In this document: one piece after another, positions 1,823-28,771 of the stretch
Numbering within the stretch: the first letter of the stretch is position 1
How the letters are laid out: every line of letters starts with the position of its first letter
From: a virus
Taxonomy: Duplodnaviria; Caudoviricetes
IMG/VR virus record: IMGVR_UViG_3300012942_000102
Span: 1 to 31,627 of that record
DNA length: 31,627 bases
Strand: one strand, 5' to 3'
The notes under the pieces: generated by a model
The model's input: the letters and a program-made list of their open reading frames with translations, nothing else
Told to the model about the DNA's origin: nothing
The model's database searches: none
Position numbers and translations under genes: made by a program

Positions 1823-3007
1823 ATGGCTGCGATCGACCCCAAGCTGCGAGAATTCGCCACCGAGCGACAGCGCGACGTCCTCGACGCGATCGAGAAGCAC
1901 GGCAGCCAGCGGAATGCGGCCAAGGCGCTACGTCTTTCCTCTGGTACTGTCGGCAATACGATGGCAGCGGTGCAGCGCAAGGCAGCGAAGATGGGGTATT
2001 CGCCAGCCCACGACATGACTCATGTCGTGCCGGACGGGTTCAGGGTGCGCGGAGTTTCGACTTATTATGACGATGAGGGCAAGCCGCGCGGGCAATGGGT
2101 GAAGTCTGCCGTTGACCGAGATCGGCAGGAAGCGATTCTGCGCGAGTCGTTCGCCGCGATGGCTGAGGCGCTGCCCCGTGTACGGCCTGTCCCCGGGCCA
2201 ACGAAGGCAGACGAGGCGCTGTGCAACCTGTACACCTTCACCGACAGCCACGTTGGCGCCCTCGCATGGCACCGGGAAGGGGGCCACGATTGGGACCTGA
2301 AGATTGCCGAACAGACCCTGGTAGCCGCGTTTGCACATATGGTGCAGGCGGCGCCATCGGCCAAAGTTGGTTTCATTAATCAGCTCGGGGACTTTCTGCA
2401 TTCAGACGGGTCGAACGGCCTGATGCCGGTGACGCCGATGCACGGCCACATCCTCGACCAGGACGCGCGATTCGCGAAGGTTGTAGCGACCGCGATCCGG
2501 GTGCTGCGGCGCATCGTTGATTTCGCGCTGGAGAAGCACGAGCAAGTCGTCGTGCTACTGGCCGAAGGGAATCACGATATGTCGTCGAGCATCTGGCTTC
2601 GCGCCATGTTCAGCGCGCTCTACGAAAACGAGCCGCGCGTGACGGTGATCCAGTCGGAGTTGCCCTACTACGTCTACCAGCACGGCAAGACGATGCTGGC
2701 TTTCCATCACGGGCATCTACGGAAGAACGACGACCTGCCGCTCCTGTTCGCCGCGCAGTTCCCGAAGGTCTGGGGCGAGACGACGAAGCGCGTGTGCCAT
2801 GTCGGTCACAGGCACCACGTCGAAGAGAAAGAGCACAGCGGCATGACCGTGGTTCAGCACCCAACGCTTGCGGCTCGGGATGCATACGCGGCCCGCGGCG
2901 GCTGGTTCGCGGAGCGATCGGCGACGGCCATTACTTACCATAACGAATATGGGCAGGTCGCCCGGAATACGGTGACGCCGGAGATGTTCGGGCAAGCGGA
3001 TGGGTAG
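1823..3007 (+). CDS. calcineurin-like metallophosphoesterase with N-terminal HTH
   Basis: All five motifs visible: DSH, GDFLH, GNHD, HHGH, GHRH. N-terminal HTH-like segment (GSQRNAAKALRLSSGTV). Confidence 0.85.
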   Translation: MAAIDPKLREFATERQRDVLDAIEKHGSQRNAAKALRLSSGTVGNTMAAVQRKAAKMGYSPAHDMTHVVPDGFRVRGVSTYYDDEGKPRGQWVKSAVDRDRQEAILRESFAAMAEALPRVRPVPGPTKADEALCNLYTFTDSHVGALAWHREGGHDWDLKIAEQTLVAAFAHMVQAAPSAKVGFINQLGDFLHSDGSNGLMPVTPMHGHILDQDARFAKVVATAIRVLRRIVDFALEKHEQVVVLLAEGNHDMSSSIWLRAMFSALYENEPRVTVIQSELPYYVYQHGKTMLAFHHGHLRKNDDLPLLFAAQFPKVWGETTKRVCHVGHRHHVEEKEHSGMTVVQHPTLAARDAYAARGGWFAERSATAITYHNEYGQVARNTVTPEMFGQADG

Positions 3008-3081
3008 TCCCGTAACGAAGCGGGGCGTGACTGTAAATCAAGTGCCATGGCCTTGGTGGTTCGAGTCCACCGCCTCCACCA
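2998..3081 (+). tRNA. tRNA-Tyr(GTA)-like gene, structurally degenerate (possibly pseudo-tRNA)
   Basis: GA-CTGTAAA-TC anticodon arm (GTA at 3033-3035), long variable arm, perfect T-arm GGTGG-TTCGAGT-CCACC, 3' ACCA end, 84 nt. Acceptor and anticodon stems contain mismatches. Confidence 0.65.
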
Positions 3082-7324: not shown

Positions 7325-7487
7325 AACGACTGTTGCGGCTGCGCCGGACAACTCTACTACCCTCGCGATTCTCGATGAAATCGCCGAACTCGCCGCCAAG
7401 GCACAAATCTACGCTGACCGCGATCAGGGGTCCGCACTCGGCGCAAAGATCAGTGCGCTTGTTGAGCAAGCGAAGGCGGCGCTGTGA
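7314..7487 (+). CDS. small hypothetical protein (57 aa)
   Basis: ATG at 7314 in the frame of track ORF 7104..7487; stop overlaps the next start (GTGA). Confidence 0.55.
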
Positions 7488-9979
7488 CGAAAGCCAAGGC
7501 GCGCAATCTCGCTGCGCTTCGGACTGCATGGGCTGCAATGGGGCTGGACGAACTCGTGAAGGGTTCGAGCAAGGCAGATATCCAGAAGAACATCGAGACG
7601 GAAATCGCCAGCGGCAAAGCCCCAAATCAGGCAGCAGCGATCGCGTATAGCGTCGCGGGCAAGGACGGTGAAGGACAGCTGAGGGATGACGACGGGAAGT
7701 TTGCGGAGACGGGGTCGTCTGGCCAGAGTGGCGGACAGTCATCGACTGCCGAGCCGGTTGCGAAACTCTCCGGTGCCGAACTGCACAGCGAGGAGCACCC
7801 GGAAATCACAGCCGACAATGTCGTCGCGGCTTCCCGCAACTGGTTCAAGGCCAACCTGCAGGGCAAATCACTGCCGATGAACGGTGGCGGCGAGGCCCGA
7901 GTCTCGGCGAAATCCTGGGAAAAGCTCAAATCCAACACGAAGTCGGATCTGGATAAAGCTCGGCTCATCCCGGCTATTCCCCACATCGTACAGAAAGGTC
8001 AGCGCAGTGACTTCGTTCCGCTGTATAAGCCGCGCTCCGATGGTGTGGTTGGGTTCCACAACTTCAATGCTCCCGTGCAGCTTGGAGACACGATGCACCA
8101 CGTTCAGGTACAGGTAGGCAAGGACAAGTCAGGTGACTTCGTCTACCACCTGAAACACCAGGGCGACGAGCAAAAAACAAAAGGCTCCAAGCCGGTCCGG
8201 GGGACTTCGCCCGGGGGAGTGGAGCCTTCGGTGGCCAGCGATGCCGGTCACGAAACCAATATATCCGATTCCAGCGAAGAACTCAACCTGACGATTCTGC
8301 GCAGTTGGTCGGCTGAAAACGGGGACGAAGCCGGGGAAGCGACGGGGGCGCCACCTGTTCTGGCCGCGGGCGTCCTCTATCTCACTGCTGGCAAGGTCCT
8401 GCTCGTCAAGCGCAGTGCGGACACCGCGGACTTCCCTGAAACGTGGGGATTCCCCGCCGGCCATCTTGAGCCCGGCGAAGATCCGATGCTCGCCGCAGCA
8501 CGGGAGTCTTATGAAGAGGTCGCGCACTTCCCGCTGTCGCTTGCGCCGATGTCAACCGGCACATTCGCTCTCTTCCTGTCGCGCGACGAAATCTTTACGC
8601 CAGTCATTAATGGCGAGTCCACGGATGTGATGTGGGCACCGGTCGGAGCGTTGCCCGGGTCATTGCACCCCGGTGTCGCCGAAGCCATAGCTAGTCTAGT
8701 CGCGGCCGATGCGATGGACGAAATCGCCGCCGTGAAATCGCGCATCGAGTTCGCTGACGCGTGGGCGCAGGACAAGTCCGCTCGCATCGAGGACGTGAAT
8801 GGTTGGCCCGAAATCAAGGATAACCCGATTAGCAAGGTCGGGATCTTCGATTACCACGGCTCACAACTTCCTGGCGCGCCAGACCCGAACGCGATGTATC
8901 GGGTCTACCGCCCTGCCGAAGAACTGGCCGATCCTGAGACGATCGAGTCATTCAAGCTGATTCCGTGGATCGATAACCACGTGATGCTCGGCAGCGAGGA
9001 CGATGGGCTGACGCGCCCTGAGGAAAAAGGTGTGCAAGGCGTCATCGGGCAGGAAGTCCGCTTCGACCCAGATGCGTTCGAAGATGGAGGACTGCTCGGC
9101 AACCTCAAGTTGTTCTCGTCGGCTATGGCCGATTCCATCAATGCCGGCAAGAAAGAACTCTCCGCCGGTTACCGCTGCACGTACGACTGGACACCCGGCG
9201 AATTCAACGGCCAATCCTACGACTGCGTACAGCGCCAGATCCGCGGCAACCATCTAGCACTGGTCAAGAAAGGCCGGATGGGTCCGGATGTCGCGGTACT
9301 TGATACCGCATTCACGTGTGATTCCCTCCCTGAAAAGGAACCTGTAATGGCTGATACCAGCAACACCGCCGCCGAGGGCGGCACCGGCGGCGGCGCGTCG
9401 CTGGAGGATATGCGCGCGCAATTCGCAGAGTGCGTCGGCAAGATGGACGAGGCACTGCAGGCAGTCGCAGCGCTGAAGGCCGCGTTCGGCGAGCACGAGC
9501 AAACCGAAGGCGAGGAAGCTTCTGCGGAAGCTGCTGCGCTCGAAAACGGCAGCGAAGACAACGAGGCCGAAGAGCGTGAGGTCGCGCTCGGTGAAACGTC
9601 GGCGAACGAAAAGGCTGGCACTGACGAAGACGATCCCGACGCTGCGGTCGACGAAGGGCAGAAGGAAGCAAAGAAGGAAGCCGCGATGGACGAAGCCGCA
9701 CTGTTCCGCAAGTTCGAGCAACGCGCTGCTGAACGCAATGCCCTGGCTGAAAAGGTTTCGAAGCACGTCGGCACGTTCAACGCAACCGGCATGGACACGG
9801 CTGCTGTAGCTGCCTATGGCTGCAAGAAGCTCGGCCTGAAAGCGCCGAAGGGTCAGGAAATCGCATTCCTGTCTGGCTATCTCGCAAACAACAAGGCCCC
9901 GACTGAGGCCGTCACCGTGAAGGCGACTGGCATGGATTCGGGTAATTGGCTCACGAAGCAACTGGCTTCGCTGAACTAA
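7484..9979 (+). CDS. prohead protease/scaffold (DUF2213-type) fused to N-terminal cargo domains (LPD3/BECR-like and Nudix)
   Basis: DUF2213-type motifs [37 protein letters not shown]; Nudix box [21 protein letters not shown]; acidic scaffold-like tail. Confidence 0.85.
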
Positions 9980-9994
9980 TCGGAGAACGAAACC

Positions 9995-10510
9995 ATGTCT
10001 TTCCAATCGACTGTCAATGTCCTGCAAGGCTTCGGCGTTCCGGGTGAGGTGATTCTTCACAGCCCGCTGCGCGCCGAACCGCTGACCATCAACTCGGCCG
10101 GCGCCACGCCGAACGTGTACGGCTATGCCGCTACGAAATCGGTGACGACCAACATCGCGAAGATGGGCGGCGCAATCACCGCCGGCACGAGCGTATTCGC
10201 AGGAATCATGGCCAACCCGAAGGCCGCCCGGCTTGTTGGCGATACGAACGGTACCCTTGACCCGACGCTCGCCATTCCCGATCAATCCATCGCCGACTTC
10301 CTGACGATGGGCGATATCGTCGTCTCGGTTTCGACTGCATGCGATATCGGCGATCTCGTGATGTATGACACGACGACGGGCGCCCTGAGCACGATGGCAC
10401 CCGGCGGCACGCCGACCGCAGGCACCGCACAGGTGCCGAACGCTGTCGTATATCGCTATCCGGTGACGGCCTCCGGCGGCGGTCTCACGGTCGCACGGCT
10501 GACCAACTAA
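9995..10510 (+). CDS. head decoration/cement protein
   Basis: SFQSTVN..GVPGE start; lies between scaffold and major capsid gene. Confidence 0.75.
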   Translation: MSFQSTVNVLQGFGVPGEVILHSPLRAEPLTINSAGATPNVYGYAATKSVTTNIAKMGGAITAGTSVFAGIMANPKAARLVGDTNGTLDPTLAIPDQSIADFLTMGDIVVSVSTACDIGDLVMYDTTTGALSTMAPGGTPTAGTAQVPNAVVYRYPVTASGGGLTVARLTN

Positions 10511-10531
10511 CCCTCCCCTCACGTTCATAAG

Positions 10532-10559
10532 AACCCCGCTTCGGCGGGGTTTTTATTTT
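10532..10559 (+). terminator. intrinsic terminator
   Basis: AACCCCGC-TTCG-GCGGGGTT followed by TTTATTTT. Confidence 0.8.
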
Positions 10560-10570
10560 CAGGATCAACA

Positions 10571-11710
10571 ATGAATCTTCAAATCTCGAAGACGCATTCG
10601 AGCGTGAGCGGTCGTCAAGCTGCTGCCCGCCGCGCCGAAGGCAAATCGCTGTTCGCAATGGACAGCAAGGAAGTCGCGGACTATCTGCAGCTTCGTTATA
10701 CCGGCCTCGGTATTGATGAGTCGTGGGCACTCAAAGCTGCCCATTTTGCGATGGACGACCCGCAGGGCGGCGTATTCACCGCCTCGGTTGCGACGCCGGT
10801 CCAGTTCCTGCAAGCATGGCTCCCGGGTCTCGTGCGCGCGGTTTTCCAGATCCGCGTGATCGACGAAATCGTTGGTATTCAGACGGTCGGCGAATGGCAC
10901 GATCAGGAAGTCGTGCAGGGGGCAATCGAGTCGATGGGCGACGCGGTACCGTATGGCGACCTCGCGAACGTTCCGCTGGCGAACTGGAACGTCAACTTCG
11001 AACGCCGCACCATCGTACGCTTCGAAAAGGGTTTCTCCGTCGGGAGACTCGAAGAAGCGCGCGCCGGCGCGATCCGGGTGTCGTCGCAAGCGGAAAAGCG
11101 TATCGCCGCCGCGACTGCACTCGACATCCAGCGCAACCTGATTGGCTTCAACGGATACAACTCGGGCAGTGACCGTACCTATGGTTTTCTGAACGACCCG
11201 TATCTGCCCGCCTACGTGACCGTCGCGAACGGCGCCACGTCGGGCACGCCGGCATGGGCAACGAAAGCGACGCTGGACATCATCGCTGACCTGCTGCTGG
11301 CGTTCAAGACGCTCGAAGTGCAGTCGGGCGGCAACATCCAGCCGAAGGTAGACGATACGACGCTGGTTCTCCCGACCGGCTTCGATGCATTCCTCGGCAC
11401 GCCGACAACGCTAGGATTCTCGGCGAGTGGCTGGCTGCGCGACAACTATCCGAAGTGCCGCATTGTCACCGCGCCGCAACTCGCGGGCGCGAATGGTGGC
11501 GCAAACGTGATGTATCTGTTCGCCGATCGTGTCGCCAGCGACCCGGACTCGACCGACGATGGCCGTACGTTCCTGCAAGCGGTGCCATCGAAGTTCCAGA
11601 CGCTCGGTGTGCAACAGGAAGCCAAGCGCTATGTCGAGGACTTCTCCAACGCGACGGCCGGCGTCATGGTCAAGCGTCCTTGGGCGGTCGTCCGCTACAG
11701 CGGTCTCTAA
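10571..11710 (+). CDS. major capsid protein (DUF2184-type)
   Basis: 379 aa; YGD, GFLNDP and C-terminal TAGVMVKRPWAVVRYSGL motifs; synteny. Confidence 0.9.
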   Translation: MNLQISKTHSSVSGRQAAARRAEGKSLFAMDSKEVADYLQLRYTGLGIDESWALKAAHFAMDDPQGGVFTASVATPVQFLQAWLPGLVRAVFQIRVIDEIVGIQTVGEWHDQEVVQGAIESMGDAVPYGDLANVPLANWNVNFERRTIVRFEKGFSVGRLEEARAGAIRVSSQAEKRIAAATALDIQRNLIGFNGYNSGSDRTYGFLNDPYLPAYVTVANGATSGTPAWATKATLDIIADLLLAFKTLEVQSGGNIQPKVDDTTLVLPTGFDAFLGTPTTLGFSASGWLRDNYPKCRIVTAPQLAGANGGANVMYLFADRVASDPDSTDDGRTFLQAVPSKFQTLGVQQEAKRYVEDFSNATAGVMVKRPWAVVRYSGL

Positions 11711-11719
11711 CAGCCAGTC

Positions 11720-11801
11720 TTGCCCGGTCTAGGTTCGCGAGCCGAAGCCGTCCCATCCCTCCTAAGGCGGCGCGACCGGGCAACCCTCTCGGAGGTAGGA
11801 G
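11720..11801 (+). ncRNA. structured cis-regulatory RNA candidate (three-way junction, anti-SD loop), copy 1
   Basis: P1 TTGCCCGGTC/GACCGGGCAA; TAGG..CCGA hairpin; P3 GCCGTC/GGCGGC with loop CTCCTA complementary to downstream TAGGAG. Confidence 0.6.
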
Positions 11802-11807
11802 AATTAA

Positions 11808-12194
11808 ATGCCGCATATTGCATCCACCCTCACCTGTGACAACCGGTACGCTAATTATCTGCGTGGCGACGGCATCCTGACCGAAGCCGAAGGTGTCACA
11901 ATCAAAGGTGGCTTCGGCCTTGCCAATCAGAACTTCGTGACGCCGACTGGCGCGGTCGTGACCGCCGTGACTGATTCTGAGCTCGCATTGCTTGAAAAGC
12001 ATCCGCAGTTTCGCGAGCATCAAGCTAGGGGCTTCGTCAAAATCCTGAAAGGCACGACGGACGGCGACAAGGGCGCGGTCGGTATGACGCTCGGCGACAA
12101 GTCGCAGCCGATCAATCCGCAGATGTACCAGAAGAAAGACGACGAGCGGCCCGAAATCCTGTCGGTTAGCACGGACCAGTTGAAGGTGAAGTGA
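11808..12194 (+). CDS. conserved virion-module hypothetical protein
   Basis: Strong RBS, follows the capsid gene; GGFGLAN..TP.G..T.V motif. Confidence 0.7.
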   Translation: MPHIASTLTCDNRYANYLRGDGILTEAEGVTIKGGFGLANQNFVTPTGAVVTAVTDSELALLEKHPQFREHQARGFVKILKGTTDGDKGAVGMTLGDKSQPINPQMYQKKDDERPEILSVSTDQLKVK

Positions 12195-12610
12195 TGGCCT
12201 TTGATATCGCTGCCTTCCAGACAGCGTTCCCGGCGTTCAGTGACACGGCGACCGCGACCATTCAGACGTGGGTCAATATCCTGGCTGAATCGTCGATGGC
12301 CGACTGGTTCGCCAGTACCACACTGACGCAACAGCAATTGATCGTCGCTCACGTCGGCTATCTGATGACGAACGCAAGCACCCTGAACGATTCGCAGGGT
12401 GGGGGTGCCGTCGTCAGCGCATCGGAAGGCAGCGTATCGGCTTCGTTCGTGACCCCTCCTGTAAAGGACGGCCTCGAATACTACCTGTCTGGTTCGCAGT
12501 ACGGCCAGATGCTGTGGGCGATGCTGAATATCAGCGCTGCCGGCGGCATCAATATCGGCGGCCTCCCCGAGAGTCGAGCCTATCGACGCGTGTACGGGGC
12601 ATTCCGTTAG
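12194..12610 (+). CDS. head-tail adaptor (DUF4054-type)
   Basis: FDIAAFQTAFPAF start, SASEGSVSASF and SQYGQMLW motifs. Confidence 0.8.
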   Translation: MAFDIAAFQTAFPAFSDTATATIQTWVNILAESSMADWFASTTLTQQQLIVAHVGYLMTNASTLNDSQGGGAVVSASEGSVSASFVTPPVKDGLEYYLSGSQYGQMLWAMLNISAAGGINIGGLPESRAYRRVYGAFR

Positions 12611-12849
12611 TCCTCATCGTCCTCTTCGTCATCCAGTTCGCGGCTCAGGTCTTCTGCCTGGTGGCAGGCCTCGATCATCTCGACTACCTCGCGAATCTCT
12701 TCGTCGTTCAGTTCGATGCGGAAATCGCAACGCGGGCATTTCAGGCCGCGCAGCTTGAAGTACTCATCGAGGTTGCGCGAGAACGAGAAACCGCACCGCT
12801 CACAAACGAACGGCAGCATTTCCTCCAGCGTGCGTGAACTGTATGGCAT
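12607..12849 (-). CDS. small acidic Zn-ribbon protein, antisense insertion
   Basis: CERC..CPRC pairs and an acidic tail; fills the gap between two + strand structural genes. Start uncertain. Confidence 0.55.
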   Translation of the reverse strand: MPYSSRTLEEMLPFVCERCGFSFSRNLDEYFKLRGLKCPRCDFRIELNDEEIREVVEMIEACHQAEDLSRELDDEEDDED

Positions 12850-13385
12850 TTAAGCTCGACGAAATTAACAGACGGCTTGAGGCCCTCAAGACGCAGACGA
12901 TCAAGGCCGGGATTCTGGGTGGGACGTACGAAGACGGAACGAACATTGCCTATGTCGGGGCGATCCAGGAGTACGGCGCACCGGCAGCAAGCATACCACC
13001 GCGCCCTTTCATGCGATCCACGGTGGCAGCCGAGCAACGCGAATGGCGTAAGGCACTTGCCAGCAATATCGCCCGTGTCGCTGCTGGTGAAATGACGGCC
13101 GAAGACCTGATGAACGCCGTTGGTGCGCGCATGGCGGCAGACATTCAGACGACGATCGCGGAGATGGATTCGCCGCCGTTGAGCCCGATCACCGTCATGC
13201 TCCGCGGGATGCGCAGCCACGACCGCGACCTTGTCGTTACCGGCAAGACGGTCGGGGAAGCCGCACAGCGTGTAGCTGATGGTGCTACCAATTACGGCGC
13301 CTCCGACAAGCCGCTGACACCGCCGGATTCCGAAGGCGGCACAGGTCTGCTGCTCAAATCAATCTCCTGGAAGGTAGGCGAATGA
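12843..13385 (+). CDS. neck / tail-completion protein
   Basis: EYGAPAASIPPRPFMRST motif, ending LLKSISW; synteny. Confidence 0.75.
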   Translation: MAFKLDEINRRLEALKTQTIKAGILGGTYEDGTNIAYVGAIQEYGAPAASIPPRPFMRSTVAAEQREWRKALASNIARVAAGEMTAEDLMNAVGARMAADIQTTIAEMDSPPLSPITVMLRGMRSHDRDLVVTGKTVGEAAQRVADGATNYGASDKPLTPPDSEGGTGLLLKSISWKVGE

Positions 13386-13765
13386 AGCTCCGGTCGATCG
13401 TCAACGGTGCGATCCAGGGCATCAATCGCGATCAGACCGTGACCTGGGTGTCGAACCAAGGCTACACGACGGCACCGGACGGCACGCGCACACCGAATCG
13501 GACCTCGCAGACCGTACAGGCCAATGTGCAGGCGTTGAGTGGCACCGATCTTCGGCATGTCGACGGGCTGAACCTGCAGGGCGTCATGCGTTCCGTCTAC
13601 CTCTACGGAGACGTAGAGGGGATCGTTCGTGCGGACGGGAAAGGCGGCGACATGCTGCAGTTCCCGGAAGTGCCTGGTGGTACGACGCGCAACTGGCTTG
13701 TGAACCAGGTCATGGAAGTTTGGCCCACCTGGTGCCGCGTAATCGTCACGCTGCAAAATCCATGA
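13382..13765 (+). CDS. head closure / collar protein
   Basis: ATGA overlaps on both sides; VQAL..L.H.DGLNLQG and W..WC motifs. Confidence 0.7.
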   Translation: MKLRSIVNGAIQGINRDQTVTWVSNQGYTTAPDGTRTPNRTSQTVQANVQALSGTDLRHVDGLNLQGVMRSVYLYGDVEGIVRADGKGGDMLQFPEVPGGTTRNWLVNQVMEVWPTWCRVIVTLQNP

Positions 13766-14478
13766 GCTTATCCGTCACCGAATCCAATGTCTTTGCGGCA
13801 TTGCGCGCATTCCTGTTGGCAATCCTGCCGGCTGGCGTCGAGGTCGTGAAGGCCCAGGCGAATCTCGTGCCGCCGCCGGCTGGCACGGATTACGTCACCA
13901 TGACGCCGCTTCTGCGGCAGCGACTGGAATGGAACATCGCTGATTATTCAGACACATCTTTCACTGGATCGATCAGTGGCGATACACTCACCGTGACCGA
14001 AATATTGATCGGCACGATTGAGATCGGCACAGCGATCGTCAGTAATGGCGTCGCAGCAAACACGATCATCACTGCGGCCGACGCAGTCAACCCGGACGGC
14101 ACTGGCACTTACACAGTCAGCCAGTCGCAAACCGTCGCGAGCCAGAAAATGGCGGCGGGCACCAAAACCGTCCTTCAGCCGACGCAGGTCAGCGTGCAAC
14201 TGGACGTGCATGGCCCGAACTCGGGCGACAACGCGCAGATCATCACGAGCCTCTTTTTCGACCCGTATGCGACGGACGCTTTTCAGTTGTCCGGATATGA
14301 CGTGGCTCCGCTGTACGCCGATGACCCGAAACAGATCCCGTTCATCAACGCTGAAAACCAGTATGAGGATCGCTGGGTAGTCACGGCCTACATGCAGGCC
14401 AATCCGACGATTACGCTGCCGCAGCAGTTCGCCGACGAACTGGAAACGACCGTCACAGAAGTTCAGGCAAGCGCCTGA
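13762..14478 (+). CDS. tail terminator-like protein with an inserted beta-rich domain
   Basis: ATG at 13762 overlaps the upstream stop; VQLDVHG, PLYADDPKQ and EQYE.RW-like motifs; directly before the sheath. Confidence 0.7.
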   Translation: MSLSVTESNVFAALRAFLLAILPAGVEVVKAQANLVPPPAGTDYVTMTPLLRQRLEWNIADYSDTSFTGSISGDTLTVTEILIGTIEIGTAIVSNGVAANTIITAADAVNPDGTGTYTVSQSQTVASQKMAAGTKTVLQPTQVSVQLDVHGPNSGDNAQIITSLFFDPYATDAFQLSGYDVAPLYADDPKQIPFINAENQYEDRWVVTAYMQANPTITLPQQFADELETTVTEVQASA

Positions 14479-14503
14479 TATCCCCGCATCCCCGTTTCAT
14501 TCG

Positions 14504-14533
14504 AGCCCGCCATTGAGCGGGCTTTTTCTTTTT
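14504..14533 (+). terminator. intrinsic terminator
   Basis: AGCCCGC-CATTGA-GCGGGCT followed by a T-tract. Confidence 0.75.
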
Positions 14534-14544
14534 GTGGAGCCCAA

Positions 14545-16053
14545 ATGGCGAGCATTCCCGCAAGCGCAATCGTCTCGGTTATTCCGAGTGTCATCTCGGC
14601 CGGCGGGAGCGCTCTTGATCTCATCGGCCTGTGCCTGACGCAAAACACTCGTGTTCCGACCGGTGAAGTACTTTCGTTTCCCTCCTCGGCCTCGGTGTCG
14701 AGCTACTTCGGCGCAACGTCGGTAGAGGCTGCGCAGGCCGCAATCTACTTCGCGGGGTTCGAGGGATCTAACGTGCTTCCCGCCGCAATGCTGTTCGCGC
14801 AGTACAACACGGCGGATGTTCCGGGCTATCTGCGCGGCGGCAGTGTAGCGTCCCTAACGCTTGCAGAATTGCAGGCACTGTCTGGCACTCTGACCATTAC
14901 GGTCGCAGGCGTTGCCGAAACCTCATCGTCGATCAGCCTGTCGGCTGCTACCAGCTTTTCCGATGCGGCATCCATCATCGAAGCCGCATTCACGTCGCCA
15001 ACCTTCGCCATCACGTACGACAGCGTCTCCGGCGCCTTCGTGTTCACGACCACGACGACCGGAGCGACGGAAACGATCACGTATGCGACGGGAACGCTGG
15101 CTGCGGGTCTGGCGCTGACGCAAGCGACCGGCGCCATTCTTTCGCAGGGTGCGGCAGCGCAAACGTCACCATCCGCTTTCATGGCGGGGATCGTCAATCA
15201 GACGACGAACTGGGCGACCTTCTGGACTGACTTCGACCCGGATGCTGGCACGGGCAATGCCGTCAAGTACGAGTTCGCCCAGTGGGTCGGCACGACGACC
15301 AACCGCTTCGCCTATATCGCCGAAGACACCGACATCACGGCGACCGAATCGACCAACGCAACGACGTCGCTCGGCCAGAAGGTCAAGGCTGCCGGTATTT
15401 CGGGCGTCTCGTTGTGGTACGCGCCGACGACCCCGTACGGCCTCGCCGCTTTTGTGTCTGGCGCCATCGCGTCGATCGACTTCACGCAAACCAACGGCGA
15501 AGCAACGCTCGCGTTCAAGTCGCAGTCGGGTCTTGCTGCAACGGTAACGGACCAGACCTCGGCGGCGAACCTGATCGCCAACGGGTACAACTTCTACGGC
15601 GCTTACGCGACGGCGAATGAGAGTTTCATCTTCTCATATCCGGGCTCCGTCTCTGGCTCGTTCGAGTGGCTCGATGCTTACGTCGGGCAAATCTGGCTGA
15701 ACAATGCGCTACAACTGGCGCTCATGGAACTGCTCACGAACGTCAAGTCGATTCCCTACTCGCCGGCTGGATACGGACTCATTTCCGCCGCGATGCAGGA
15801 CCCGATCAACGCGGCTGTCACCTTCGGTCTGATCACGCCCAACGTCACCCTCTCGTCGGCACAGATCGCCGAAGTGAACAACGCCGCGGGCACGAACATC
15901 GCGAACACGTTGCAAAGCCAGGGTTGGTATTTGCAGATCCAGGCACCTACTGCGCAGACCCGCGGGAATCGCACTAGTCCGCCGGTAAATTTCTGGTATT
16001 GTCAAGGGGGCTCTATCCAGAAGATCAACGTCGCGAGCGTTGAGGTCCAATAG
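14545..16053 (+). CDS. tail sheath protein (DUF3383-type)
   Basis: 502 aa; [18 protein letters not shown] start, [25 protein letters not shown] end. Confidence 0.9.
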
Positions 16054-16056
16054 TCG

Positions 16057-16065
16057 TGCTACAGT
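16057..16065 (+). promoter_or_regulatory. candidate extended -10 promoter of the HNH cassette
   Basis: TGcTACAGT lies 7 nt upstream of the structured leader. Confidence 0.4.
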
Positions 16066-16072
16066 AGCAATC

Positions 16073-16154
16073 GTGCGGGATAGGAGGCATCCGACAAGCC
16101 AGTTCCCTAGCTGGTTTCCCGCACCCATTACTAGGGGTTTGTTTAGGGACAAAC
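16073..16154 (+). ncRNA. structured cis-regulatory RNA candidate, copy 2 (leader of HNH)
   Basis: P1 GTGCGGGA/TCCCGCAC; TAGG..CCGA; P3 AGCCAG/CTGGTT with loop TTCCCTAG complementary to CTAGGG (16131) and TAGGGA (16144, the RBS). Confidence 0.65.
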
Positions 16155-16877
16155 ATGGAATCGAAAAGCTGCAACAAATGCGGCCTTGTGAAGCCGTTGG
16201 ATCAATTTAGCAAGTCATCGAGCGGGAAATTCGGGCGCAAATCGCGCTGTAAATCGTGCATATCTGAGGACAAGCGCGCATATCGCGCGGCCAATCTAGA
16301 CGCGTGCCGAGCCAAGGACAGAGAGAGAAGGGCTCTTGACGGGGGCGTAAATAACGCTCGTTCTCGCGCTTGGTATGCCGCCAACAAAGATAAGGCCAAG
16401 CAAACGCGCAGGGCATGGCGGGAACGCAATGCAGAAAAAGACCGGGCAGATGTAGCGGCCTATCAAAAGGCGAATGCTGAACGGCTCAAAGCGGCGGCAA
16501 AAATCTGGAGCGCAAATAACCGAGACAAGAAGCTCGGCTATGCCAAGAAATATCGGGATACCAATCGGGAACAATTCCTGTTGGCTGGCGCGGAATGGCG
16601 AAAGCGAAATCGCCACAAGGTCAATGCAAAAAAATCGCGACGTATCGCCTCTCAAGTTCGGGCCACGCCGGGTTGGGCAGATTTAGAGAAGATTTCGGCA
16701 GTCTACTTTGCCGCAAACTTTTTGAGCATGGTGACAGGCGAGTGGTATCACGTTGACCATATCGTGCCTATACGGTCTGACGTTGTTTGTGGACTGCATT
16801 GGGAAGGCAACCTCCGAGTGTTGCCGTCCGCCGAGAACCAAAGCAAAGGCAACCGGCACTGGCCGGATATGCCCTAA
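16155..16877 (+). CDS. free-standing HNH homing endonuclease
   Basis: N-terminal CxxC..CxxC, long basic helical repeats, C-terminal HVDHIVP..GLH..NL......N..KGN. Confidence 0.9.
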   Translation: MESKSCNKCGLVKPLDQFSKSSSGKFGRKSRCKSCISEDKRAYRAANLDACRAKDRERRALDGGVNNARSRAWYAANKDKAKQTRRAWRERNAEKDRADVAAYQKANAERLKAAAKIWSANNRDKKLGYAKKYRDTNREQFLLAGAEWRKRNRHKVNAKKSRRIASQVRATPGWADLEKISAVYFAANFLSMVTGEWYHVDHIVPIRSDVVCGLHWEGNLRVLPSAENQSKGNRHWPDMP

Positions 16878-16898
16878 GCAATCACATCTGATTCAATC

Positions 16899-16929
16899 AA
16901 AGCCACCCTCCGAGGTGGCTTTTTCTTTT
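16899..16929 (+). terminator. intrinsic terminator
   Basis: AAAGCCACC-CTCCGA-GGTGGCTTT followed by TTCTTTT. Confidence 0.75.
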
Positions 16930-16939
16930 GGGGCCTTAC

Positions 16940-17371
16940 ATGTCGGATATCACTTCGGCGAACAGTGTTCTACTGCTCGGCGTGAATAGTCTTTACACCG
17001 TGCCTCAGCAACTTCAGGGTTTTGGTCAGGACGACGCCTATGCGATGGAAGCTGTCGATAACAAGGAAGTCCAGATCGGTGTCGACGGCAATCTGTCGGC
17101 GGGCTGGATCCCGCAGATCAAGACGATGACCGTGACGCTGCAGGCCGACAGCGCATCGAACGATTTCTTCGAGGCGTGGTATGCCGCAGAAGAAGCGGCT
17201 AAAAGCGCGTACTTCGCGTTCGGCACCATCGTCCAGCCGGCGATCAACAAGATGTACACGCTGACGAACGGCGTGCTGTCGAACTACACGCCGCTCGCGG
17301 AAGCCAAGAAAGTGCTCCAGCAGCGCAAGTTTCAGATCAAGTGGCAAGTCGTTATCGGAGTGCCGACGTAA
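16940..17371 (+). CDS. tail tube protein
   Basis: MSDITSANS start, GVDG.LSAG and TLQADS motifs; follows the sheath. Confidence 0.8.
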   Translation: MSDITSANSVLLLGVNSLYTVPQQLQGFGQDDAYAMEAVDNKEVQIGVDGNLSAGWIPQIKTMTVTLQADSASNDFFEAWYAAEEAAKSAYFAFGTIVQPAINKMYTLTNGVLSNYTPLAEAKKVLQQRKFQIKWQVVIGVPT

Positions 17372-17820
17372 TGGCCCGCAAACAGATCACGATCACGATC
17401 GATACGCCAGGACGCGACTTCGGTAAGTCATACCGGCTCACGGAAATGCCGGCGTCACAGGCCGAGAAGTGGGCTGCGCGCGCCTTTCTTGCACTCGCAA
17501 AATCCGGCGTCGAGATCCCAGACAACATCGCGAAGGCCGGCCTCGCTGGCATTGCCGCGTTCGGGTTGAAGGCGCTCGGCAGCATGGACTTTGCTGACGC
17601 CGAATCGCTGATGGACGAGATGTTCCAATGCATTTCCTGCATACCCGATCTGTCGCGCCCGATGGTCGTCCGTGGCTTGATTGAGGACGACATCGAGGAA
17701 GTCTCGACGCGCGTGAAGCTGCGCAAGGAAGTGTTCGGTCTTCACGTCAATTTTTCTATGCCCGCCGCCGGCTTGACCTCTTCTTCGACGGCGACGGGCG
17801 CGAATACGCCGACTACCTGA
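17371..17820 (+). CDS. tail assembly chaperone (gpG-like)
   Basis: GRD.GK.Y.LTEMPASQAEKWA.RA motif; between tube and tape measure. Confidence 0.8.
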   Translation: MARKQITITIDTPGRDFGKSYRLTEMPASQAEKWAARAFLALAKSGVEIPDNIAKAGLAGIAAFGLKALGSMDFADAESLMDEMFQCISCIPDLSRPMVVRGLIEDDIEEVSTRVKLRKEVFGLHVNFSMPAAGLTSSSTATGANTPTT

Positions 17821-26367: not shown

Positions 26368-26568
26368 ATGGCGGATTCAATTGCGGTGCAATTTTCGGAG
26401 GATGCCGAGCAAACAATCATTACGTTTCTCGGCATCACTACCCACGAGCCAGACAAGAACGAATGGCCCAACAGCACGATCATCACGACTGATGATGCAA
26501 GGTATGAAACCTACTACAACGCACAGTGGCCAATGATTCAGGCGGGACTTCCGGCTCCGGGCTCCTGA
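26368..26568 (+). CDS. small tail-fibre-associated protein
   Basis: AAGGA RBS; VQFSED..WPN....DD.RY..YY; directly after the fibre gene. Confidence 0.65.
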   Translation: MADSIAVQFSEDAEQTIITFLGITTHEPDKNEWPNSTIITTDDARYETYYNAQWPMIQAGLPAPGS

Positions 26569-27569
26569 TCCGTCAATTTACGTTCGATCTGGCATAGTTT
26601 TTCCTCCAGATGCCATATCAATCGTTCCTTGTCGATAACGACCTTTTCTAGTTCTGAGGCGCGATATTCGAAAACGCGAACTTGTTGCTCCGCTGATTCA
26701 GCCCTGGCTATCAACGCTTCAATGTCGTGGGGACGAAGGTGTGATTCTGGTGGCATAAATGCCGTTCGTTTCGCGAGATACTTATTCAGCGCTGCTTCGA
26801 CATCGGAGCGATTGAACCCAGCGAGCAGATTGGAGAACTTGTTGTGGTTCAGATGTTCGTGGGCGACATGATAAGCGGCATTGTCTTCGGTCAGATCGTG
26901 GATTTCGGTGCCATGCACGGCGAACGCACATGGGAACACCTTCAACAGACGCTCACGAAATTCCGGAATTGTCATTCGACGGAACATGGAGAGACACCAA
27001 TGATTCATCTCCATGAAAACGAGCGGGCCGTAAGCGTCGAATGTCTTTTTTGAGCCCTCGAATACATCCAGCTCAAAGCCTTCAACGTCGATTTTCATGG
27101 CGTCCAGTCGCGCGAGCCCGGTCTGGTCGAGAACATCGTCCAGACGATGGACTGGAACCCGCTCTACGAAGTGGTTGCTGCCCTTGATGGAGAACTTGTC
27201 CGCAATAAAGGAACCGGCCAGGAAATCGGGATTCCCCTGCATCTCCAGTTCGCCACTCTCCGCGCCAAGCGCAAAATTGTGCAAACTGACATTTGGCGCA
27301 CGAACGTTCCGCTGCAGTAATGCATATGTACGAGGGACCGGCTCAATCGCCGCAATTCGTCCTGCGGGACAGAACTGTGAGAGACCGATGGCAGTGAAGC
27401 CAATATTTGCCCCTACGTCGATAACATGCGAGTCGGGAGCTACTATCGACGACAGGATTTCGAGTGTCATCGGCTCAAAGGTGTCCCCCATGCTGCTCAG
27501 GTACCCCACGTCGCCGGTGATATCGTGGAGCGCATCAGCAATGCGAATTTTCCGCGTCTGTAGTCTCAT
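26538..27569 (-). CDS. FkbM-family SAM methyltransferase with C-terminal coiled coil
   Basis: IDVGANIG, AIEP and KIDVEGFE motifs; heptad-like tail; visibly lower GC. Confidence 0.9.
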   Translation of the reverse strand: MRLQTRKIRIADALHDITGDVGYLSSMGDTFEPMTLEILSSIVAPDSHVIDVGANIGFTAIGLSQFCPAGRIAAIEPVPRTYALLQRNVRAPNVSLHNFALGAESGELEMQGNPDFLAGSFIADKFSIKGSNHFVERVPVHRLDDVLDQTGLARLDAMKIDVEGFELDVFEGSKKTFDAYGPLVFMEMNHWCLSMFRRMTIPEFRERLLKVFPCAFAVHGTEIHDLTEDNAAYHVAHEHLNHNKFSNLLAGFNRSDVEAALNKYLAKRTAFMPPESHLRPHDIEALIARAESAEQQVRVFEYRASELEKVVIDKERLIWHLEEKLCQIERKLTDQEPGAGSPA

Positions 27570-27656
27570 TGGTCTATCGGTGGTAGTTATGTGATTTTCA
27601 TATCGCTATCGCAAGGATGTGCGGCGCGCAGGGCATTATATATAGAACCCCGATGA

Positions 27657-28379
27657 TCACCAGAACGTATAGTTCAAGCTCAACATCCACTCGCCCTTGA
27701 CGCCCGCTGGAATGTTGCCGTTGGTGAGCCGGCCGGCTGGCGCATAGAGATAGTTCGCACGCACCGAGAACGGCCCGCGCGCGACGGATACGCCAGCGAG
27801 TGCGCCCAGTTGGATGGCGGGCGAACGCGAGAGCGTTTCCTGCGTTCCTGCGGCCCCGAAACGGCCATCCGATAGTGCGGTCGCAACGGCGGTCCACGTC
27901 GAGCGATAGAGCGCCGGGCCGGCTTCAATACCGAACTGCCAGCCGGCCCCGAGATCCCAGTACGGCTCGATCGTCAGCGCGATCGCCTGAATGCCGCCCG
28001 TCGAGTCGAAGCGGCGAAACGTGCCGCAGTTTCCGTCGTTGCAGGTCTGCGTCTTGATGTTGTAGCCGCCGGTCGTGCCGGTCCCGTCGAAGTCGGCCGC
28101 ATCCTGCGGATTGACGGACGACCAGCGTACCTTGCCGAAGTTGTAGTAATCCAGGTGAAGGCGCAGACCCGGCACAAACGACCGCGGATGCGCGTCGATC
28201 GCGTTCAGCACGATCCCGACGCGACCGCCGTAACTGCCGTTCGGCGTGCTGTGGGAGAAGCCGCGAGAGTAGTACATGCCGTCGCCAAGCTTCGTGGCTG
28301 ACGTGATGCCAACGCCGGCTTCGATCTGAAAGAACGATTCGGCGCGCGCCTGTGTTGCTGCGGCGCAGCCGAGCGTCAT
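27657..28379 (-). CDS. outer-membrane beta-barrel protein
   Basis: A-x-A cleavage-like site (ARA/ESFF), alternating beta-strands, terminal WMLSLNYTFW beta-signal. Start ambiguous (28379 or 28718). Confidence 0.75.
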   Translation of the reverse strand: MTLGCAAATQARAESFFQIEAGVGITSATKLGDGMYYSRGFSHSTPNGSYGGRVGIVLNAIDAHPRSFVPGLRLHLDYYNFGKVRWSSVNPQDAADFDGTGTTGGYNIKTQTCNDGNCGTFRRFDSTGGIQAIALTIEPYWDLGAGWQFGIEAGPALYRSTWTAVATALSDGRFGAAGTQETLSRSPAIQLGALAGVSVARGPFSVRANYLYAPAGRLTNGNIPAGVKGEWMLSLNYTFW

Positions 28380-28381
28380 CG

Positions 28382-28672
28382 CTACGGCTGCGACTCTCCA
28401 TCGGCATCCAGGTCGATCTGCGCGCCGACCTTGCGCATCCGCGCGAGCACGCGCTCGACCGTGGCCGCATCCAGCTCGAGGCGCGCCATCGCGAAAAACA
28501 GCATGTGTGCGCCCATATCCCGCCGATTCTGCGGGTCGTTGGCTTGCGACGTGTACCGCCGCCATTGCCGGGCGCCCGCAAGCCCGAACAGTTCGGCCAT
28601 CTCGCCGCTGCTCTTTCTGAGTTCGATCTTTAGGGCCTCCAGCGCTTCGGGAGGCGGCGGCGTGTAGTGCAT
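28382..28672 (-). CDS. XRE-like helix-turn-helix regulator
   Basis: LEALKIEL.KSSGEMAELFGLAGARQWRRY HTH pattern; AGGGA RBS. Confidence 0.75.
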   Translation of the reverse strand: MHYTPPPPEALEALKIELRKSSGEMAELFGLAGARQWRRYTSQANDPQNRRDMGAHMLFFAMARLELDAATVERVLARMRKVGAQIDLDADGESQP

Positions 28673-28771
28673 GGGAATGTCCCTGCGCGTGAAAAAGCGC
28701 GCGAAGAAAGCGTTTCATGGTCGTTCCTTTCGGAGTATCGAACCGCGCGGATGCGCTGCTCAGCAACTCCT

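Follow-up and report, generated by a model that had tools for sequence, protein, structure and literature searches.

The window analysed herein, namely the whole 31.6-kb stretch of DNA, is a linear virus record containing a myovirus late operon, in which the tail sheath gene (nearest named relatives in Burkholderia phages, 56-58% identity) is followed by an inserted cassette with a structured RNA leader and an HNH-type endonuclease gene, and then by the tube gene (Table 1). The nuclease carries CxxC pairs in its N-terminal part and HVDH..GNL..EN in its C-terminal part, which we take to be an HNH-type motif. Searches of Pfam, NCBIfam, and PDB with this protein gave no match and no solved relative. 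The hairpin and U-run located after the nuclease gene were also present in the orthologous loci L003, L004, L015, L084, and L089. Terminator-like sites occur at 10524-10560 (this one spotted by eye), 14503-14524, and 16899-16922, upstream of the capsid, sheath, and tube genes, respectively, and their presence within the late operon implies antitermination or internal promoters.

Table 1. Positions of the two RNA elements, their parts, and the neighbouring genes in the window.
Feature	Position	Strand	Evidence or remark
Major capsid gene	10571-11710		Copy 1 directly downstream
Copy 1 junction	11720-11783	+	After major capsid gene; RF02996, 26.3 bits
Copy 1 boxes GGAGG and TAGGAG	11791-11795 and 11796-11801	+	Adjoining, not ~14 nt apart; ATG at 11808
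Tail sheath gene	14545-16053	+	PHROG 205, E 3e-88; upstream of inserted cassette
Extended -10 box TG-C-TACAGT (predicted promoter)	16057-16065	+	7 nt ahead of P1
Copy 2 three-way junction, int-alpA type	16073-16124	+	Folding; Rfam RF02996, 38.0 bits, E 2e-5
Copy 2 P1, GTGCGGGA / TCCCGCAC	16073-16080 / 16117-16124	+	UA after the 5' strand
Copy 2 P2, GGA-GGCA-TCC	16083-16092	+	
Copy 2 P2 loop GGCA	16086-16089	+	2-nt GC palindrome only, at the position of the family's self-complementary loop
Copy 2 P3, AGCCAG / CTGGTT	16097-16102 / 16111-16116	+	
Copy 2 P3 loop TTCCCTAG	16103-16110	+	Complementary to box 1 and box 2
Box 1, CTAGGG(G)	16131-16137	+	14 nt from junction; proposed cis decoy or pseudoknot partner
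P4 hairpin, GTTTGT-TTAGGG-ACAAAC	16137-16154	+	Box 2 in its loop
Box 2, TAGGGA, SD of nuclease gene	16144-16149	+	5 nt upstream of ATG 16155
HNH-type endonuclease gene, 240 aa	16155-16877	+	PHROG 1035 endonuclease VII, E 4e-23; PHROG 7091 HNH, E 2e-7
Intrinsic terminator-like site	16899-16932	+	Closes cassette ahead of tube gene

The RNA in front of the nuclease gene (copy 2) folded as a three-way junction formed by the helices P1, P2, and P3 (16070-16130; z -3.68, 1/200 shuffles equally good), and the element downstream of the capsid gene (copy 1) likewise folded as a three-way junction (11718-11786; z -2.31, 3/200 shuffles equally good), in agreement with the layout that the original prediction had described as common to both sites. 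As had also been proposed, the P3 loop TTCCCTAG of copy 2 is complementary to both CTAGGG and TAGGGA at the predicted positions, with computed duplex energies of -10.1 kcal/mol for box 1 and -9.0 kcal/mol for box 2, and the ribosome-binding site indeed resides in the GTTTGTT/GACAAAC hairpin, with the Shine-Dalgarno sequence (SD) in its loop. A T-A pair of this P4 hairpin (-4.2 kcal/mol, equalled by 0/200 shuffles) is replaced by C-G in four orthologous rows; the hairpin pairs the spacer ahead of the nuclease ATG, and the SD bases TAGG within its loop were unpaired with a probability of 0.99.

The predicted -10 box would, judging from the sequence, put the transcript start at approximately 16073. 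In an alignment of six rows, comprising copy 2, four orthologous rows, and one unrelated member with an identical P2, the T, A, and T of the hexamer were invariant (6/6), the middle bases being different, and a sigma-70 scan of 9900-17500 found no full -35/-10 pair. Across the family, a -10-like hexamer was found 9-15 nt ahead of the junction in 35/88 members, as compared with 14, 7, 6, 6, 4, and 2 in windows further upstream. The element had originally been drawn from 16057 onward; the junction and the boxes within that span proved real, but the small hairpin into which 16057-16069 folds was not conserved in relatives, the conserved part there being the -10-like hexamer. A U-run after P1 was absent from both window copies.

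Neither element represents a new architecture, an idea that was rejected because of the match to the Rfam family int-alpA (RF02996). In a narrow scan with permissive filters, copy 2 scored 38.0 bits, a borderline value above the gathering cut-off of 35.8, and copy 1 remained below it with 26.3 bits. Scans with the Rfam gathering filter, an E-value scan of the whole window, and an own-genome search did not report copy 2; stricter-filter or longer-sequence scans thus miss it, and routine annotation would not flag it. RF02996 and both copies share the P1/P2/P3 junction, the P3 loop, and AGGG at the end of a 3' tail, and broadly also the UAG and CGA(A/C)AA strands. Against the junction consensus of RF02996, UA(G), (C)GAAAA, and CU, copy 2 retains UAG and CGA, whereas its J2/3 strand reads GACAA (one change; GACA in 1/89 representatives of the family) and its J3/1 strand is shortened from CU to one U. 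The RF02996 model spans 71 positions and stops at box 1; box 2 and P4 are absent from it, and neither the P3 loop with its boxes nor the P2 loop is shown as paired. The name int-alpA presumably denotes a location before integrase or alpA genes. The window copies instead precede a nuclease gene and a head-region gene, and the other Rfam-scoring members are also found before many gene types, indicating that gene context is not defining for int-alpA. Copy 2 is thus a real, borderline-scoring additional member of a catalogued orphan RNA family.

Rfam types RF02996 as "Gene; sRNA", and the motif reportedly originates in Weinberg et al. 2017. The term "alpA" was absent from the main text of that paper (PMC5737381), whose supplement may describe the pseudoknot or the SD pairing, and from that of Fremin 2023 (PMC10690425). 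In excerpts of two further sources, int-alpA is listed in a genome inventory of putative sRNAs, without further study there (PMC12370729), and "int-alpA" occurs as a gene-order phrase only (PMC13612085). Searches by name, by RF02996, and by concept, with most subscription papers outside their coverage, found no published function or mechanism.

For a family-wide comparison, sequences were gathered from protein-anchored loci, six pattern scans, 50 related records (7/50 with a match), and eight annotated phage regions. These 896 sequences yielded 174 distinct matches to a descriptor covering the core only, one of which was dropped, and the remaining 173 were reduced to 89 at 72% similarity. As the search patterns fix the junction letters, the conservation of the junction is partly built in. 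An Rfam check placed 15/20 loci above the int-alpA cut-off, and a pattern scan of genome contigs gave one descriptor match in 120 loci. RNAalifold recovered the junction from 67 of the 89 cores (49-53 nt), with compensatory changes in 13 of 14 consensus pairs; the cores having been preselected for pairing, the evidence lies in the variety of pair types and not in the pairing rate. In the window itself, the full descriptor matched exactly two sites, which were the two copies, whereas 100 doublet-shuffled windows gave a mean of 0.03 and never two.

A start codon was assignable for 79 of the 89 non-redundant members, at a median distance of 41 nt from the junction (IQR 37-45). Using the longest Watson-Crick helix between each loop and its own upstream window or SD window as the measure (n = 79), we obtained a mean of 4.46 for the box 1 window versus 2.84 upon permutation (2.96 when GC-binned), and of 4.72 for the SD window versus 3.40 (3.49 when GC-binned); in all four tests, 0/20,000 permutations reached the observed value. 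Loop-target covariation across homologues, whose absence the original prediction had named as refuting, was therefore present with both boxes. The permutation null includes the SDs of other members, and thus generic anti-SD likeness does not explain the covariation; loops far from anti-SD were among those covered, two examples being TGGTT, matched by AACC/AACCA, and TGCACC, matched by GGTGCA/GTGCAG. In an earlier subset the count was 48/58, whereas permutation yielded a mean of 9.4, and the upstream and same-sense controls stayed at background level. Both boxes paired over at least 4 bp in 52/79 members. In these 52, the distance between the junction and the start of box 1 had a median of 15 nt (IQR 14-17), box 2 started 14 nt after box 1 and ended at a median of 8 nt ahead of the start codon, and box 2 lay inside the loop of a hairpin of at least four pairs in 45 cases (null 12.3, maximum 22). 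The two pairings overlapped by at least 3 loop nt in 46/52, indicating that one loop cannot hold both boxes. The lengths of P1 and of the linker were negatively related, but this relation was partly definitional and was discarded.

The claim that each loop fits its own target was borne out in part. Among the 31 gene starts in the window, a 6-bp match of each loop was found solely at its own downstream gene. The loop of copy 2 was also calculated to bind the boxes of copy 1 far less strongly (-3.6/-5.3 kcal/mol) than its own, but the loop of copy 1 bound the boxes of copy 2 (-7.7/-7.1 kcal/mol) nearly as well as its own (-9.4/-8.9 kcal/mol). The specificity is accordingly one-sided, and orthogonality between the copies holds in one direction only. 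In copy 1, the P2 loop contains the palindrome TCGCGA (11735-11740) and the P3 loop spans 11753-11765; its counterparts in L005 and L015 showed compensatory changes in P1 and P3 with the P2 palindrome retained. In close relatives, the capsid site of copy 1 holds a different family member. Variant elements with another P2 closing (AGAG..CTC, or T-A) and a loop CTGACCG/TTTGACCG that matches two CGGTCA-like boxes were observed after the capsid gene in L004 and L013 and at L639:1502-1590.

Comparison of related sheath-tube sites revealed how the leader is distributed. In L002, L005, L006, and L013, the sheath stop adjoins the tube start and the element is absent from that site, whereas it is present, with 74-76/82 nt identity (90-93%), where a nuclease gene is inserted. 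The gene behind it encodes a GIY-YIG protein unrelated to the window HNH in L003, L004, and L009, and an HNH protein approximately 40% identical to that of the window in L015, L084, L085, L089, and L090; the leader was conserved even beside a sheath of only 51% identity. Since the leader including the SD is nearly identical before different nucleases, the SD belongs to the module and travels with it. The assertion that the loop had been re-matched to the HNH ribosome-binding site consequently failed, and the leader is a portable unit with its own SD. The modular architecture likewise inferred at the outset was corroborated. Six other sheath-tube insertions (L022, L023, L024, L029, L038, and L041) were devoid of the element, which is thus not required for insertion there.

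Throughout the family, placement ahead of a homing endonuclease gene is frequent; further downstream genes encode Rha and AntA antirepressors, replication initiators, and tail assembly chaperones, together with many proteins without a family match. One strict pattern was fitted by approximately 2,700 IMG/VR stretches, 61 of 121 sampled ones passing the full descriptor. At 80% query coverage, a related stretch occurs in 481 phage records, the majority being Guernseyvirinae of Salmonella and E. coli. The element was also detected in phages D3 and D6E. In a Kagunavirus and in phage Jersey, it heads the chaperone-tape measure genes, divergently from the neighbouring genes. In the Kagunavirus record MK931438.1 (L648:1500-1590), it overlaps the annotated start of a divergent superinfection-immunity gene and is hence also antisense to the 5' end of this gene, while the annotated start in Jersey is further from the element. 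Two other elements (L308:163-305 and L407:518-657) begin 4 nt past a tRNA gene, the processing of which could supply their 5' end, and are followed approximately 340 nt downstream by a second element with a different loop.

The P2 loops displayed a further family-wide feature. Palindromes of at least 4 nt occurred in 32/60 distinct P2 hairpins, compared with 12.8-15.8 in shuffles (maximum 22-26), whereas the P3 loops used as a control had 10/86 against 27.9; the P2 hairpin types are phylogenetically non-independent. Among the palindromes, 11 distinct 4-mers are represented; additional unpaired bases flank them 5' in 21 hairpins, 3' in two, and on neither side in nine, unlike background hairpins, which were symmetric. 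A DNA operator as the source of the palindromes is disfavoured by this 5' offset. Nine further P2 hairpin types have the loop GACG, which has been associated with the dimers of retroviral RNA (PMC516450, in excerpt). Counted over members, a self-complementary P2 loop of at least 4 nt was present in 53/89, and copy 1 also has one, and a loop that is either palindromic or GACG in 63/89, in which respect the family resembles the retroviral dimer-initiation hairpins as described in that excerpt. The resemblance is confined to one loop; here the RNA is a bacterial mRNA leader with a putative dimer, and copy 2 has GGCA, which lacks self-complementarity of at least 4 nt and does not qualify as a kissing-dimer hairpin. 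Copy 2 belongs to the class without a 4-nt palindrome (26/89 members), in which 11 of the 20 with a start codon keep both boxes.

On these grounds, we consider it highly probable that loop-SD pairing, whichever route is taken, enables the element to control how the next gene is translated. As to the route, we tentatively favour, with confidence somewhat short of even, that the int-alpA-type leader acts as a protein-free translation limiter, box 1 serving as a cis decoy and a second copy covering the SD. Transcription would start at P1. Of the two boxes, box 1 is transcribed first and its spacing is constant, and the nascent P3 loop would pair with it in cis; the SD would then stay in the weak P4 loop, permitting some translation. 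Junction-only RNAs of approximately 52-60 nt with a free P3 loop may accumulate, through 3' decay stalling at P1 or, in some members, termination at a U-run. A second copy would then dock by P2-loop kissing, and its P3 loop would kiss the SD loop, whereby output would be capped as the transcript number rises. The docking step is weakest for copy 2, because its P2 loop GGCA gives only two central pairs. For simple repression, box 1 would be superfluous. Taken together, box 1, P4, and the palindromes can be accounted for by a decoy for the nascent loop combined with an SD loop exposed to a second copy, a view that we hold with slightly less than even conviction.

In favour of such a limiter, the downstream genes are often ones kept low, such as those for homing endonucleases, Rha/AntA antirepressors, and replication initiators, and earlier examples exist of short RNAs that act on the read-through form of their own transcript, namely IsrK, and P4 CI with two targets (PMC4825925, in excerpt). 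Several observations count against it: one box is missing at 4 bp or longer in 27/79 members; the box 1 helix is longer than, equal to, or shorter than that of box 2 in 32, 15, and 32 of 79, respectively; the boxes of copy 1 adjoin; the P2 loop of copy 2 lacks a 4-nt palindrome; and some of the genes behind the element, e.g., in Guernseyvirinae, encode tail assembly chaperones, which are needed in quantity. A U-run after P1 was found in only 23/89 members, on which basis a terminator at this position was rejected as a family rule, and the short form would accordingly need decay or cleavage. Moreover, IsrK activates rather than represses according to the same excerpt (PMC4825925), and the element's effect may therefore be of either sign. 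Of four runs compared with the Kagunavirus-like locus L164, two provided contigs, one 0 reads, and one 30 reads without any pile-up at start or end, which is too little to weigh either way.

Phages possess other RNAs with which the element can be compared, and the P1 C4 RNA is grouped with the P4 CI and IsrK type. The likeness to P4 CI and Gifsy-1 IsrK lies in a phage RNA derived from the transcript that it would control, in the two complementary targets, and in a short form that may act on the long form (PMC4825925, in excerpt). In contrast to C4, CI, and IsrK, both int-alpA targets are downstream and are addressed by one pairing loop, and CI terminates and IsrK activates; no C4-type Rfam match was obtained up to E 10 in 11600-16300, and no match of at least 6 bp to a C4/CI-like target within 300 nt upstream of either copy. 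With the T-even endonuclease genes (I-TevI-III, segB, and mobE), copy 2 has in common an RNA structure at the SD of a homing endonuclease. In the T-even genes, the SD is concealed in a simple hairpin, which is left out when transcription starts at a late promoter (PMC2988022, in excerpt). In copy 2, by contrast, the SD is in a loop at which a separate junction is directed, and the whole structure lies downstream of the predicted promoter; copy 2 is thus no case of an SD in a stable hairpin omitted by an internal late promoter.

The same anatomy can be read without a second RNA. In a purely cis two-state attenuator, the P3 loop would switch partners, the SD being open while the loop pairs with box 1 and closed while it pairs with box 2, and folding kinetics or the helix balance would set a fixed low output. 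This arrangement, which we regard as somewhat unlikely, is consistent with the near-equal duplex energies in copy 2 (-10.1 vs. -9.0), with the equal helix lengths and fixed spacings across the family, and with the persistence of both boxes where a 4-nt palindrome is lacking, copy 2 included. It fits copy 2 about as well as the decoy mechanism does, but leaves the palindromes, with their 11 sequences and 5' offset, unexplained. The opposite sign of control is a rather improbable alternative, in which the loop-box 1 pseudoknot or a docked copy opens P4 or aids 30S loading and thereby raises translation of inserts in the late operon. A timP pseudoknot activates (PMC11228461, in excerpt), as does IsrK in trans (PMC4825925, in excerpt); the spacer before the ATG is paired in P4, and the occurrence ahead of tail assembly chaperones would suit activation. 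Nevertheless, the box 2-loop covariation exceeds generic SD similarity, pointing to direct occlusion of the SD, and T4-type homing endonucleases are held down by RNA structure that hides the SD (PMC2988022, in excerpt).

We deem it quite improbable that a metabolite, ion, or protein of the host bound to the conserved UAG/CGAAAA junction selects the box in the manner of a riboswitch. A conserved junction with two exclusive pairings, the SD among them, would be expected of such a device; nevertheless, no metabolic theme emerged among the downstream genes, and the junction conservation is, as noted above, partly a product of the search patterns, copy 2 even deviating from it (GACAA). That the element is instead a free sRNA acting in trans on other genes, or a 5' stabiliser that blocks nucleases and has no role in translation, appears very improbable. 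The Rfam type and the 5'-terminal position agree with either possibility, and a junction with a loop pseudoknot resembles xrRNAs; on the other side, the loop tracks its own downstream boxes, no 6-bp match exists at the other gene starts among the 31 in the window, and the start codons lie at a fixed distance (junction-start median 41, IQR 37-45). Chance folding combined with an SD-like coincidence is practically negligible: the bare TAGG..CCGA pattern does occur at chance level (6 matches vs. 4.2 expected) and anti-SD-like loops fit SDs generically, but the descriptor count (2 vs. 0.03 expected), the Rfam match, the compensatory pairs, and the permutation covariation, whose nulls already hold the SDs and loops of other members, refute this reading.

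Returning to the preferred limiter with its decoy box, a more far-reaching version seems doubtful, though it merits statement: int-alpA would be a widespread RNA that, without any protein, keeps count of its own transcripts, the copies pairing via the self-complementary loop and their two programmable loops clamping the duplicated site over the SD, so that translation of any gene behind is capped at whatever dosage, with homing endonucleases, antirepressors, and morons carrying a portable promoter-leader-SD cassette. If true, such dosage sensing would constitute a new kind of RNA-only autoregulation as well as a programmable part. The anatomy elucidated herein, that is, two covarying boxes, the SD in a loop, a predicted promoter at P1, and a palindromic P2, makes the function of the orphan motif testable, the window locus being one further member with a weak P2 loop.

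Several other features of the window were noted. A tRNA-Tyr-like remnant at 3001-3081, overlapping the end of the exonuclease gene, retains a GTA anticodon arm, a T arm, and a CCA end with the 5' acceptor strand unpaired; it was called by neither ARAGORN nor Rfam, and is possibly an attachment site or a decayed tRNA. The 831-aa head maturation protease (7484-9979) includes a weak Nudix-like stretch at around residues 294-351, below curated cut-offs. Past the tail fibre genes, the moron-like region 26538-28766 on the minus strand holds an FkbM-family methyltransferase (TIGR01444, above cut-off) and a 369-aa ORF without a family match. At L014, L017-L022, and other sheath loci, many related matches to the sheath are 210-670 nt longer than the window gene, which suggests inserted domains.
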